DNA of 64,000 nt from Octopus vulgaris (lineage: Eukaryota): the NCBI GenBank assembly GCA_951406725.2, contig OX597825.1, forward strand, positions 9,114,001 through 9,178,000. Direction: 5' to 3'. Both the position numbers and the translations under genes were made by a program. Positions 22,985 to 51,570 of the stretch are shown one piece after another (positions within the stretch are counted from its first letter, which is position 1; each line of letters begins with the position of its first letter). The notes beneath the pieces are model-generated. The model was not told the origin of the DNA. It made no database searches and saw only the letters and a list, made by a program, of their open reading frames with translations.

Positions 22985-23143
22985 GATTTGAAGCAGCTGA
23001 AAGTTCAACAAAACCTGTTACTCTGAGTTTCCCGTTGCCGTTCATCGGACAGTTTTTGCTAGAATCTAGCAAAAGCTGTCCGATGAACGGCAACGGGAAA
23101 CTCAGAGTAACAGGTTTTGTTGAATTTTCTGCTGCTTTAAATC
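22985..23143. repeat. Fold-back inverted repeat, 79-bp arms (PLE-like terminal hairpin)
   Basis: Arms 22985-23063 and 23065-23143 are reverse complements with about 4 mismatches; lies right after a (TA)n tract. Confidence 0.95.
23071..23118 (+). ncRNA. Minimal type-I hammerhead ribozyme motif (U4C variant)
   Basis: Stem I AAAAGCTGT/ACAGGTTTT; core CCGATGA; stem II CG-GCAA-CG; GAAA; stem III ACTC-A-GAGT; GUA cleavage triplet. A mirror copy lies on the minus strand in the left arm. Confidence 0.7.
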
Positions 23144-23236
23144 AATCATATTACTCTACCACTGTTATTTGAGTACTCTTTTTTCCACCTTGTTTCACAT
23201 TTATGTGTTTACTCCGTTATAGATATGTGTATATAT

Positions 23237-23520
23237 GGTACTTATTTCCCGGACCCTGAAAGGATAAAAGGCAAAGTCGACCTCGACGGAATTTGAACTC
23301 AGAACATAACGACGGACGAACTGCCGGTAAGCATTTGGCGTGGTGTGCTAATGATTCTGTTAGCCTTAATAATAATAATTAATATCATTTCAAACTTTTA
23401 CCACGAAGACAGCTTGTGAGAGGTGGGGATGAGTCGATTATATCGATCCCAATGTTCAACTAGTGATTTTTTTAACGACCCCTTGACCATGAATGATAAA
23501 GTCGACACCGGCGGAATTCC
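23237..23520 (-). mobile_element. Two partial or degenerate SINE-A copies
   Basis: GGCAAAGTCGACCTCGACGGAATTTGAACTCAGAAC (23237-23368) and AAAGTCGACACCGGCGGAATT (about 23380-23520). Confidence 0.7.
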
Positions 23521-23978
23521 TAGTAGTTATATACATATAGAGAAACATATACGGGATCTCCTATCCGTAATACATCGGGCAAAAATTAAAGATCATATTG
23601 CTGGGATGAAATTGTAATTAATAGTTTATAGAATCTACAAATTATAAATCATCGTGCGTTCGCAAGCTAATGTGTGTCGGCAGGTATTGATGTCTTCATT
23701 GACGCCCACCAGAAAAAAGACATGATTTTGCTATCTGTTCATACGTGTATTGTGATATCACTTAATAGATATGCATTTACTTATTCATGTATATGCAAGC
23801 CCCGTTTTGTCGATAAATAATTATATCTTTAAAGTAGTACGCCTAAACGAATATATATCCTCGCATATAATCTATCATTCATTGCGCGTATATGTTGACA
23901 TGGAGTCGACTCTTGCTTTAAGTAGGCTTAACTCATTTGCCCTCAGATATATGTACGCAATGCTATGCATTCTTAAGC

Positions 23979-24072
23979 ATATATATATATATATATATAT
24001 ATATATATATATATATATATATATATATATATATATATATATATATATATATATGTATGTATATATATATAT
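23979..24072. repeat. (TA)n microsatellite
   Basis: Direct inspection. Confidence 0.97.
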
Positions 24073-24261
24073 AGTAAAAAAATACATAATACGTTTTATT
24101 ATTTTCGTCGTCTCTATCATTAATATAATTCTGGTAAATTCTGCAATCTATAAATTACAATTTTATTCAAGTAACATCCTTTTATTCCTTTTAATCTTTG
24201 TATGAAGAAATATGAATACGAATTTCCATGAATATTTTTGTATATGAACATACCTATTTGT

Positions 24262-24420
24262 ATCTATCCTCACTCTCTCTCTCTCTATCTATCTATCTAT
24301 CTCTCTCTATCTCTCTCGGTCTTTCTCTCTCTCTCACTCTTCCTCGTTCTATCTCTCTCTCTCTCTCTCTCTCTCTCTCTCTTTCTCGGTCTCTCTCTCG
24401 CACTCTCTTGTCTTTTTTCT
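24262..24420. repeat. (CT)n/(CTAT)n microsatellite
   Basis: Direct inspection. Confidence 0.92.
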
Positions 24421-25007
24421 CATTCTCCACGTATGTGGACATGTACGTGTGTATTTCCCCTATATCATTAATTATCAGTAAATCTAATTTCTAATATATA
24501 TCGCCATGCAAATTAATGTCCCTTTATTGTCTACTGTGGTATATATGAGACCTGTTCAATATTTACCTAATGTCTCTGACACCTACCATTCTTGTTTCTT
24601 AATGATAATAATGAACTGTAACCCCGCCGTACGCAAATGATTCTTTCTTCTCTTCATACGCTACGGAATTTATTTTCCATAACGTCTCTCTCTAAGTTAC
24701 AGTAGATTAATTTTATGCTCAATTACCTGGCATTACTAGCAGCTCGAGGGACAATCTGCAAATATTTTTTCTACGCATGAACTTTTGCATACATTTATAT
24801 ATATAATACGAATGCAGATCTAACAGGTCGTTAACCACATATTGCCCATTGAGGGCAATCTGAGGCTAACGAGTATCTCTTAATCATGATCAAATTTACA
24901 TTATGCTCTTGGTTATTATTTAGATTTTTGTTGCTAGAGGTGACCGTGAAGCTGTAGTGGTTGTAATTCTCCAAGACACTACAAGGGGTCTGATCAGCGT
25001 CGTAGTG

Positions 25008-25130
25008 TTTACTCTTTTACTCTTTTACTTGTTTCAGTCACTTGACTGTGGCCATGCTGGAGCACCGCCTTTAATCGAGCTAATCGACAGCAGGAATTAT
25101 TCTTTGTAAGCCGAGTACTTACTCTATCGG
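25008..25130 (-). mobile_element. SINE-B 3' fragment
   Basis: TTACTCTTTTACTTGTTTCAGTCACTTGACTGTGGCCATGCTGGAGCACCGCC. Confidence 0.85.
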
Positions 25131-25142
25131 TGAAAAAAAGCG

Positions 25143-25214
25143 TTCCCATGCCGGGTATCGGGCCCATGCCGCCTGGGTAAAAGCCAGGAATCCTAACCAC
25201 TAGACCAAATGTGT
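25143..25214 (-). pseudogene. tRNA-Glu(TTC)-derived pseudogene; anticodon now reads TTT
   Basis: Minus strand ACACATTTGGTCTAGTGGTTAGGATTCCTGGCTTTTACCCAGGCGGCATGGGCCCGATACCCGGCATGGGAA aligns over 72 nt with the metazoan tRNA-Glu consensus. The T-loop (GCCCGA) and 5' acceptor strand are damaged; T7 follows 3 nt downstream. Confidence 0.85.
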
Positions 25215-49195: not shown

Positions 49196-49197
49196 AC

Positions 49198-49812
49198 CTC
49201 AGAACAACACTAAGTGAAAGACAATGTCCACCTCCACTTATAGACGGTGGAATTACCCGTGCTAAGAAGTTTCACATTAAAACACTCAGGGCAACAAAAC
49301 GTAACACCATACTCAATCTCAAAGCATAACTCTATGTATCAGCTCAGAACTCTAGAAACTATGAGTCATACAATTCTATTGTACAAAACGTACCTATGAT
49401 AACTAGAGATCCAAAAATGAACATTCTGAAAACATAAATTCATCAAATGTAACAAGCAACGCAAATCGCTAAAAAAACCTCTAACAAAAACATTACACAA
49501 TAACCACAAAATCAACGGAAAAAAATGTGATCGCCCAAACGGACGAACATGTCCCAACCTACTTGAAGTCTCGGAATTTCTATTTAAACAAGGAAAGAGG
49601 TTCACAATTGAAACCAACTTCACTTGTGCTTCTGAGAATCTAATTTATGTTATAACTAGTCAGGTTGTGGAAATAACTATGGTAGACAGACAAGTATGAC
49701 ACTGAGACGGAGAACCACGCTACTTGCCAGTGCAAAGAAACAATTTTTATACAAGTAAGTTTAAATAAGGAAAATTTGTTCATTGAAAAATACAAAACAT
49801 GTCTTAATATGA
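49198..49812 (+). mobile_element. Penelope-like element relic: RT thumb/linker plus C-terminal GIY-YIG endonuclease (Neptune-like)
   Basis: By-eye translation LRTTLSERQCPPPLIDGGI...KKCDRPNGRTCPNL...FTCASENLIYVIT-/-GCGNNYGRQTSMTLRRR...NKENLFIEKYKTCLN, with frameshifts and an internal deletion; absent from the ORF track. Confidence 0.82.
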
Positions 49813-50088
49813 ACGCATAACCAACTTTGATCTTAGACTATATTTTAATTCATGATCACATACCCATCACTGTACATATTTCTTCTCAATACCTCAGCTT
49901 TTACGTTCTTCTGTATATGTATCCCCTTCTCGAAAGATGAACAAGTACCTCCCCTGTCCCCCAAAATAACGATCACCAATTTACGTCCCTTCAGATTTTT
50001 CTACTTGCTGAATTATTCATTCATAAACTTCTCCACACACAACACGCATTTAAATCTTCTTAATAAAATACGAAATTACAATAATTTT

Positions 50089-50125
50089 TCTGCCATGATT
50101 AGCGAAAGCGAAACCGGTCGACAAA
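50089..50125 (+). ncRNA. Decayed hammerhead motif in the PLE 3' region
   Basis: TCTGCC-ATGATTA-GC gaaa GC-GAAA-CCGG-TC|GACAAA; palindromic ACCGGT stem III; two substitutions in CTGATGA. Confidence 0.6.
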
Positions 50126-50628
50126 CACAATATAAAATATATTTTAAAATATATTAAAACTATGTAAAGTGTGTGCATTTCCTTCTTTTATTTTATATAT
50201 ATCTTTTGCATTGAAACTTATCACGAGAGTTAATTAATCAATTGTCCGTCTTCCGGTTTTTCAACCTTCCACTCTTTCTTTATACTTCTTTCTCGCCTTT
50301 TATCGCTTCTTCTCTCGTTCCATATTTAGGTCGTTTGCGATGAGGGCAGTGCCTTATAACTGCGCCGAGATGCTAGACGTGTTATACAACAATGTTTAGC
50401 ATGTTCTCAGCACATGAAACTAAGTAGCATATAAAAATGTATTGTGCTTATTAAATAATATTTCTCTCTCACCAGCTGGAGTACTGTTTTTATTGATTTT
50501 ACCATTACAGAACGGTAACTATACATAGTGGAATGTCTTGGATTATATGATCCCTAATAAGGATTTGACTTCTACGAATTAATTGTGTGTGTATACATAT
50601 ATATATACATATATATATATAGATAGAT

Positions 50629-50946
50629 AGATAAATGAAAGAATGGAGTCGAACGACGATTTAACAAAATTCCTTTATTCTCGACACATGTTTCGAAGAC
50701 TGCATATTCTTAATTCTGAAGGAACAAAGGGTGCATTGTGCCGTCTTCTCATCAGGAAAGACAAGGATCTTATGTCAGCATCATGACGAACAAAAACTTT
50801 TAGATGATTGCCCACACGGAGTCCATAGTGATAAATGGATAAATTATCACTATGGACTCCGTGTGGGCAGTCATCTAAAAGACATGTGACGAGAATAAAG
50901 GCATTTTGTTAAATCGTCGTTCGACTCCATTCTTTCATTTATCTAT
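50629..50946. repeat. Asymmetric fold-back element adjoining (TA)n
   Basis: Outer IR 50629-50691/50882-50946; inner IR about 50798-50833/50844-50880; the left arm has about 105 extra nt. Confidence 0.93.
50678..50760 (-). ncRNA. Type-I hammerhead ribozyme motif with intact core
   Basis: CTTTC-CTGATGA-GAAGAC...GTCTTC-GAAA-CATGTG-TC|GAGAA: 6-bp stem II, palindromic ACATGT stem III, GUC triplet. Confidence 0.85.
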
Positions 50947-51097
50947 AGTAAAAAAACACACAAATTTCCACACGAAAGCACGTGATTTCTGCCCTTGGCA
51001 TATAGCTTCAACCGTGCTTTCTGACGTAAATTTGCTACCCGGGTATCGGTTAACCGAATTATCCATATGAGGTTAATTCATTCAACTACTTAAACAT

Positions 51098-51277
51098 TTA
51101 TATATATATATATATATATATATATATATATATATATATATATATATATATATATATATATATATATATATGTATGTATATGTATGTATATGTATTATGT
51201 ACGTATGTATGTATGTATGTATGTATGTATGTATATATATATATATATATATATATATATATATATGTATACATATC
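51098..51277. repeat. (TA)n/(TATG)n microsatellite
   Basis: Direct inspection. Confidence 0.95.
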
Positions 51278-51328
51278 AGTCAATCTCATGCAGATTCTTC
51301 ACCAGTTTACGTCCAACTGTACTAAAGA

Positions 51329-51570
51329 ACGTATATTTGCCATTTAAATATGGCTAACCCCTAAGAGTGGACGCTACTGTAGCTTGTAGCCCCAGGAGGA
51401 CACCTCCTCCAGCTGGCTTTAGACACACTTGCTGTACCCTATCAGTATTTTCACTGATAGGGCACAGAAAGTGTGTCTAAAGCCAGCTGGAGGAGGTGTC
51501 CTCCTGGGGCTACAAACTACAGTAGCATCCACCCTTAGGGGTTAGCTATATTTATAGGGCAAATATACGT
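51329..51570. repeat. Fold-back inverted repeat with arms of about 118 bp and a 6-nt loop
   Basis: ACGTATATTTGCC...CCCTATCAGT attttc ACTGATAGGG...GGCAAATATACGT. Confidence 0.95.

Follow-up and report, generated by a model that had tools for sequence, protein, structure and literature searches.

Penelope-like elements (PLEs) frequently leave inverted 5'-truncated copies with a tail on one side only (PMC8557442). Head-to-head palindromic junctions have been attributed to self-priming and occur with target duplications of 8–10 bp (PMC3846280), and pairs of minimal hammerhead motifs lying on opposite strands 100–700 bp apart have been attributed to truncated PLEs (PMC4209133). PLE insertion involves cleavage of AT-rich DNA and two internal start sites, and in vitro insertion was unaffected by ribozyme mutants (PMC11167929); the descriptions of general PLE structure in PMC6765202 and PMC8969392 agree. 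A mobilisation of retrozymes by PLEs has also been proposed (PMC7229834; bioRxiv 10.64898/2026.07.22.740005). Here we describe four short fold-back inserts in a 64,000-nt window of the Octopus vulgaris genome (contig OX597825.1, positions 9,114,001–9,178,000; all coordinates below count from the first base of this window). These hairpins are likely one-off, dead-end products left by Penelope-type retrotransposition, and each would stem from a separate family of hammerhead-bearing RNA. A first-pass annotation of the window had offered two origins, namely extreme truncation products of several PLE families or self-propagating hairpin-ribozyme retroelements. The window is animal-type DNA of 34% GC and contains 99 (TA)6+ tracts along with numerous interspersed repeats.

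Anatomy of the four inserts

Inverted repeats were searched for by self-BLAST of the masked window, with 10 shuffled windows as controls. Inserts 1, 3 and 4 were recovered as local inverted repeats with 89–94% identity, and the shuffled windows yielded 0 local inverted matches. Insert 2 was overlooked by the masked search, yet it is plain in the sequence, the alignment and the predicted fold. As the first-pass annotation had stated, the four are true fold-backs and mutually unrelated, with no similarity among them at E ≤ 0.01; the geometry was head-to-head in all of them. Its boundaries proved too short: insert 3 reaches about 51080, insert 4 reaches 51620 and insert 1 probably 23222. It had further placed a hammerhead or hammerhead-like core in each insert. 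A descriptor scan, with 30 shuffles as the control, identified strict type-I motifs at just two places in the window, 28032–28076 on the plus strand and 50679–50759 on the minus strand (shuffle mean 0.03). The motif is thus good in inserts 2 and 3, but degenerate and doubtful in insert 1 and absent from insert 4. A palindromic or near-palindromic stem III was present in inserts 1–3, as described. The matches listed in a window-wide Rfam scan (best 150 of 353) included no hammerhead, and Rfam scans of the single inserts gave a sub-threshold match in insert 3 only. Several microRNA models in Rfam matched the short hairpins, all below threshold. A poly-GAT match of the hammerhead scan at 5636–5717 was dropped as low complexity.

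Insert 3 (50627–51080) has its fold centre at about 50839 and (TA)n on both sides. Its inverted parts in self-BLAST were 50644–50703/50867–50929 and 50797–50881 (89% identity). The arm alignment resolved a full arm in minus-strand sense (50627–50836) and a second arm (50843–50947) in which a 105-nt deletion takes out the ribozyme body. Beyond the second arm lies a one-sided tail of 133 nt (50948–51080) that had been missed in the first pass. The type-I hammerhead motif (50679–50759, minus strand; strict scan and Rfam) comprises CUGAUGA, a 6-bp stem II with a large loop, GAAA and a near-palindromic stem III, with a predicted cut after 50683. It scored 20 bits against Rfam Hammerhead_1 (E = 0.011), the family threshold being 34 bits.

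Insert 2 (27918–28209) folds back with a loop of approximately 45 nt, and its right end lies directly against (TA)n. The left arm lacks approximately 142 nt, corresponding to 28043–28184 of the right arm and including most of the ribozyme. The type-I motif (28032–28076, plus strand) matched the strict scan and consists of a 5-bp stem I, CUGAAGA, a 4-bp stem II, GAA and the stem III palindrome AGUACU, with a predicted cut after 28071; none of the Rfam hammerhead models matched it at E ≤ 10. The loss of the ribozyme body from one arm, seen in both inserts 2 and 3, may stem from a later deletion by which a long palindrome was relieved, or from the polymerase having jumped over structured RNA. Splicing was rejected as a source, the insert-3 deletion having no GT..AG ends on either strand by eye.

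Insert 1 (22985–23222) is centred at about 23064, with arms extending to 23143 (94% inverted identity) and a probable one-sided tail of 79 nt (23144–23222). A 7-bp direct repeat lies around it (22978–22984/23223–23229), its left copy abutting the arm; we call the tail probable because it is marked by this weak, microsatellite-like duplication only. The type-I hammerhead-like motif (23076–23113, plus strand; mirrored at 23015–23052 on the minus strand) is degenerate. In both arms CCGAUGA replaces CUGAUGA and stem II has 2 bp, while stem III is near-palindromic. The motif was matched by neither hammerhead scan nor by Rfam. The self-duplex of stem III was predicted at −7.4 kcal/mol, stems I and II had a predicted pairing probability of 0.0 even in the isolated arm, and the predicted fold of the whole insert buries the motif inside the long hairpin. 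Judged by its sequence and these models, insert 1 is doubtful as a ribozyme.

Insert 4 (51330–51620) is centred at about 51451 and has arms to 51570 (91% inverted identity for 51329–51570 in self-BLAST), followed by a 50-nt tail. The core proposed for it lacks G8–A9 and folds as a plain 7-bp hairpin. A candidate target-site duplication of 10 bp (51320–51329/51621–51630) surrounds the whole insert; a looser form of the duplication test was passed by 70 of 2000 random positions (3.5%). An unfolded, ORF-less relative was found at 44092–44461 on the minus strand, a 354-nt unit with a 16-nt terminal repeat, 43% GC and its 3' end directly against (TA)n. Its segment 44100–44222 shares 86% identity over 123 nt with the insert 4 arm, and the relative runs unfolded past the fold point of insert 4. 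A hammerhead-like motif at 44260–44304 (minus strand; one-deviation scan, shuffle mean 0.23) has a 6-bp stem I, CUGAUGA, GCAA replacing GAAA and the perfect 8-nt palindrome ACUGCAGU, the self-duplex of which was predicted at −11.1 kcal/mol; the motif had no Rfam match. The fold centre of insert 4 had been placed just 5' of a core, but the fold point actually lies 3' of the family's motif, which is approximately 40 nt upstream. Insert 4 therefore appears to have stopped short of the ribozyme. The insert 4 tail matches 44451–44405, directly after the relative's upstream 16-nt repeat, and 1 of 1000 shuffles scored as high. This repeat duplicates the relative's own 3' end, and the relative is thus terminally redundant with a length of 354 nt. 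It may be an internally deleted PLE copy or a member of a retrozyme-like family. A 21-nt match for the insert-4 family in bacterial-looking coding DNA was discarded as coincidental, since the similarity went no further.

The reported location in or near TA tracts applied to three inserts. For inserts 1, 2 and 3, the distance between the nearer end and a (TA)6+ tract is 32, 0 and 7 bp, whereas the target of insert 4 is non-repeat DNA 65 bp from the nearest one; 6.7% of non-tract positions in the window fall within 35 bp of such a tract. No target duplication was resolvable for inserts 2 and 3, and the candidates for inserts 4 and 1 are the 10-bp and 7-bp repeats given above.

Other inverted repeats occur in the window. 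A 114-bp fold-back at 34254–34367 (86% identity) had no hammerhead scan match and is over 1 kb away from the nearest TA tract, and an older fold-back is located at 57542–58015. In this DNA, folding back is therefore bound to neither ribozymes nor microsatellites. Two further inverted-repeat pairs were 39700–39804/40292–40390 (83%), which encloses a copy of a short interspersed nuclear element (SINE)-like repeat and a TA tract, and 61465–61528/61623–61685 (78%).

The insert-3 family and self-propagation

The evidence on copies derives from the window and from contigs of four public runs placed on insert 3 (50625–51085, likeness 80); the listed family data are the best 15 of 26 joint rows and the best 40 of 79 variant rows. 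They bear on a proposal that we regard as unlikely, namely that the hairpin propagates itself as a non-autonomous element through transcription, processing by the hammerhead and re-insertion by PLE enzymes. The family is abundant, with 1145–2747 contigs per run and a summed depth of 0.28–1.19 million near the 3' end. Against self-propagation, depth amounted to 42,000–242,000 in the arm bin 50801–50816 but to only 19–534 per base at the fold centre (50835–50839), which no deep contig crosses, and the bin with the deletion junction had a depth of 582–2150. Unfolded continuations upstream of the fold point were present in 7, 14, 8 and 5 contigs of the respective runs and could be followed for only 30 letters. 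The junctions were variable: at least 19 distinct head-to-head junctions were found, each in one contig per run at a depth of 12–68, and 4 of the 19 were common to two runs among the rows listed. For insert 3, numerous copies with a common fold junction and common ends were thus not seen, and the one relative of insert 4 is unfolded. Self-propagation also fails for insert 4 in that no ribozyme lies within the insert. In models, the long hairpin sequesters the motif of insert 1, and the motifs of inserts 2 and 3 are partly paired with an arm. What speaks for self-propagation is a fold position that recurs near 50843, with several contigs crossing; the variation at the centre could moreover be later decay of a palindrome, and the contrary genome-wide evidence covers insert 3, not inserts 1 and 2. 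We found no title or abstract opening on self-propagating hairpin PLE derivatives, with subscription papers and repeat databases outside the coverage of this search.

The supposed right flank of insert 3 (50948–51080) turned out to be family sequence, as contigs bridge arm and tail (for example 50919–51016 at a depth of 876). In run X1, the short end is followed immediately by (TA)n in 24 contigs. The family thus has two 3' ends, both leading into (TA)n, and the hairpin a one-sided tail. In the variant rows listed, 0 of 13 core positions varied compared with 11 of 40 loop-II positions. Seven of the eight stem variants keep or create a pair on their own, and the eighth does so if linked to a change in its partner. 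The stem variation is pair-compatible, short of proven covariation. At 50687, a family letter with 66–78% of the depth turns stem III into a perfect palindrome; both arms of insert 3 carry the minority letter. Exact-pattern scans of metagenome and viral contigs for insert 3 gave 0 matches. A search of public runs with 48200–50590 listed none from RNA, a result without bearing on expression.

Origin of the hairpins

The anatomy of the inserts corresponds to the published PLE insertion pattern, and the hairpins are therefore likely to be one-off by-products. In such an insertion, the PLE reverse transcriptase (RT) with its GIY-YIG endonuclease would nick AT-rich or (TA)n DNA. Downstream of the ribozyme, copying would begin at one or the other of two internal sites, giving a short end or a tailed end, and would halt after only 80–210 nt. 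The product would then fold back, or join head-to-head with a second short copy. The outcome would be a hairpin with both 3' ends outward and a one-sided tail, accompanied by a short target duplication where the target is not a microsatellite. The ribozyme would be a passenger, kept where copying passed it (inserts 1–3) and absent where copying stopped earlier (insert 4); the lack of effect of ribozyme mutants on in vitro insertion (PMC11167929) fits this role. The template may have been the complete transcript of a PLE or a short derivative without an ORF. More tentatively, the templates could have been abundant short ORF-less hammerhead RNAs like the 354-nt unit, possibly circular, inserted by PLE enzymes with all the PLE hallmarks (tail, target duplication and inversion) and possessing a preferred self-priming site that keeps yielding hairpins. 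The one-arm deletions of inserts 2 and 3 might then record a jump of the RT across the folded or cleaved ribozyme.

The PLE connection made in the first-pass annotation, with truncation and inversion products of several families, fits the evidence. Of the two signs that the annotation had named for ordinary PLE truncation, variable fold-back points were seen for insert 3; a match of the arms to the termini of full-length PLEs could not be demonstrated. The annotation had also reported two relics of a PLE RT in the window. One candidate was found, the older fold-back at 57542–58015, the arms of which translate to a decayed RT-like frame (75% inverted identity over 158 nt); the second was not confirmed. 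The relic contains GLYRDD near 57839, a motif of PLE type by which the stretch is a probable PLE coding fragment; homolog searches with it returned no database match. No Pfam RT or GIY-YIG family was found in 135 of the 201 stop-to-stop frames, nor in 5 read-through frames. A possible decayed frame without a protein match (44462–45400, plus strand) adjoins the 354-nt unit.

Several observations weigh against an origin as one-off Penelope-type products. No RT or endonuclease ORF linked to any of the four families was found, the sole longer relative seen (44092–44461) is ORF-less, and the frame at 44630–45400 (plus strand) had 0 matches among 1.84 billion representative proteins. The tails of 50–133 nt are longer than the published 30–40 bp, and the match between the insert 4 tail and the relative (42 of 61 letters) is poorer than the 86% of the arms. 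Six of the 19 insert-3 family junctions among the rows listed fall at 50843–50852, and in each of runs X1 and X3 the insert-3 centre is crossed by approximately five contigs, with small loops that differ. These junctions and crossings could represent separate events at a favoured self-priming site, versions of this one locus from other individuals, or a small lineage of hairpins. The evidence from outside the window covers insert 3 only, contig depth does not equal copy number, one side of many joints is shorter than 30 letters, and hairpins can be under-represented through unitig assembly and library preparation.

We considered it quite improbable that the inserts are foldback DNA transposons resembling miniature inverted-repeat transposable elements (MITEs), or pairs of independent head-to-head insertions trimmed by deletion. 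Their small size, long inverted arms, lack of an ORF and TA-rich targets would suit this explanation, and SINE-like copies do occur head-to-head at 13949–14264. However, the tails are one-sided, the inner junctions vary and unfolded family members occur, single-armed and 5'-truncated copies were in part seen for insert 3, the minority letter at 50687 in both arms of insert 3 suggests one template, and insert 4 as a whole is flanked by a single duplication. Fold-back artefacts of assembly or amplification are highly improbable: hairpins beside microsatellites can be read artefacts and no contig spanned the whole insert-3 stretch, but the arms diverge by 6–11% scattered substitutions and internal deletions, and tails and candidate duplications are present.

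The window also contains other repeats. The SINE-like repeat of approximately 230 bp is abundant (13687–14333, 45459–45986 and at least 10 other places) and forms partial tandems as well as the head-to-head pair. A tandem duplication of approximately 1.7 kb (28431–31875; 93–99% identity) carries a broken ORF without Pfam support, which presumably resembles retrotransposons without long terminal repeats (non-LTR elements) of the R4/Dong type. Open frames at 14394–14924 and 48843–49271 (both minus strand), the first with a weak DUF6451 match (E = 0.002), are similar to the C-terminal part of proteins of RTE-type long interspersed nuclear elements. The decayed frames at 35750–36886 had only weak helix-turn-helix matches in Pfam, and we assume a likeness to Tc1/mariner transposase.

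Comparison with known systems

The closest described systems are truncated inverted copies of endonuclease-bearing (EN+) PLEs (Penelope/Poseidon, Neptune, Nematis and Hydra), which share with the inserts the head-to-head 5'-truncated copies and the one-sided tail (PMC8557442, PMC3846280, PMC11167929), as well as the short target duplication, the AT-rich targets and a type-I hammerhead near the 3' end. A hammerhead with a palindromic stem III near the 3' end was found in inserts 2 and 3, and variants of it occur in insert 1 as well as in the 44 kb copy. Variable 5' truncation of inverted copies was shown in the insert-3 family, and one-sided tails are present in inserts 3 and 4 and probable in insert 1. 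In contrast to the accounts of EN+ PLEs, no ORF was linked to the inserts, the tails measure 50–133 rather than 30–40 nt, and the ribozyme is deleted from one arm in two inserts. We class the inserts as likely PLE-type insertion products, not full PLEs. Their motifs resemble the minimal type-I hammerheads of PLEs (Cervera and de la Peña 2014, PMC4209133) in the short stem I and the palindromic stem III suited to dimer cleavage, whereas the CCGAUGA (insert 1) and GCAA (44 kb copy) cores were not found in the accessible text of that paper; the ribozymes here are predicted. Naiad elements share the (TA)n preference, inverted copies and tails, but are described as being without canonical hammerheads (PMC8557442), unlike inserts 2 and 3 with their full motifs.

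The 44092–44461 unit resembles the non-LTR retrozymes (PMC7229834; bioRxiv 10.64898/2026.07.22.740005) in being ORF-less, 354 nt long, 43% GC and terminally redundant with one type-I-like motif, and it falls within their range (approximately 170–400 nt, ORF-less, low GC). It differs in consisting of one unit plus 16 nt, with no tandem of two ribozyme-bearing units, and in its non-canonical core; we class neither this unit nor the inserts as non-LTR retrozymes. Retrozyme units are arranged in tandem, whereas the hairpin inserts are inverted, and the word "inverted" is absent from the main text of PMC7229834. If the 354-nt unit is a true amplified family, it would link retrozymes mechanically to PLE integration; if the templates were indeed short and ORF-less, the hairpins would be direct structural evidence for integration of retrozyme-type RNA via PLE machinery. 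As PLE debris, the inserts are mainly of value for annotation, since such short hairpins are easily mistaken for microRNA precursors or MITEs. The junction spectrum of the abundant insert-3 family could in addition test the origin of PLE inversions and tails, which is called unresolved in the accessible literature. Taken against these systems, the hairpins are likely a known by-product of PLE insertion rather than a new self-copying element.

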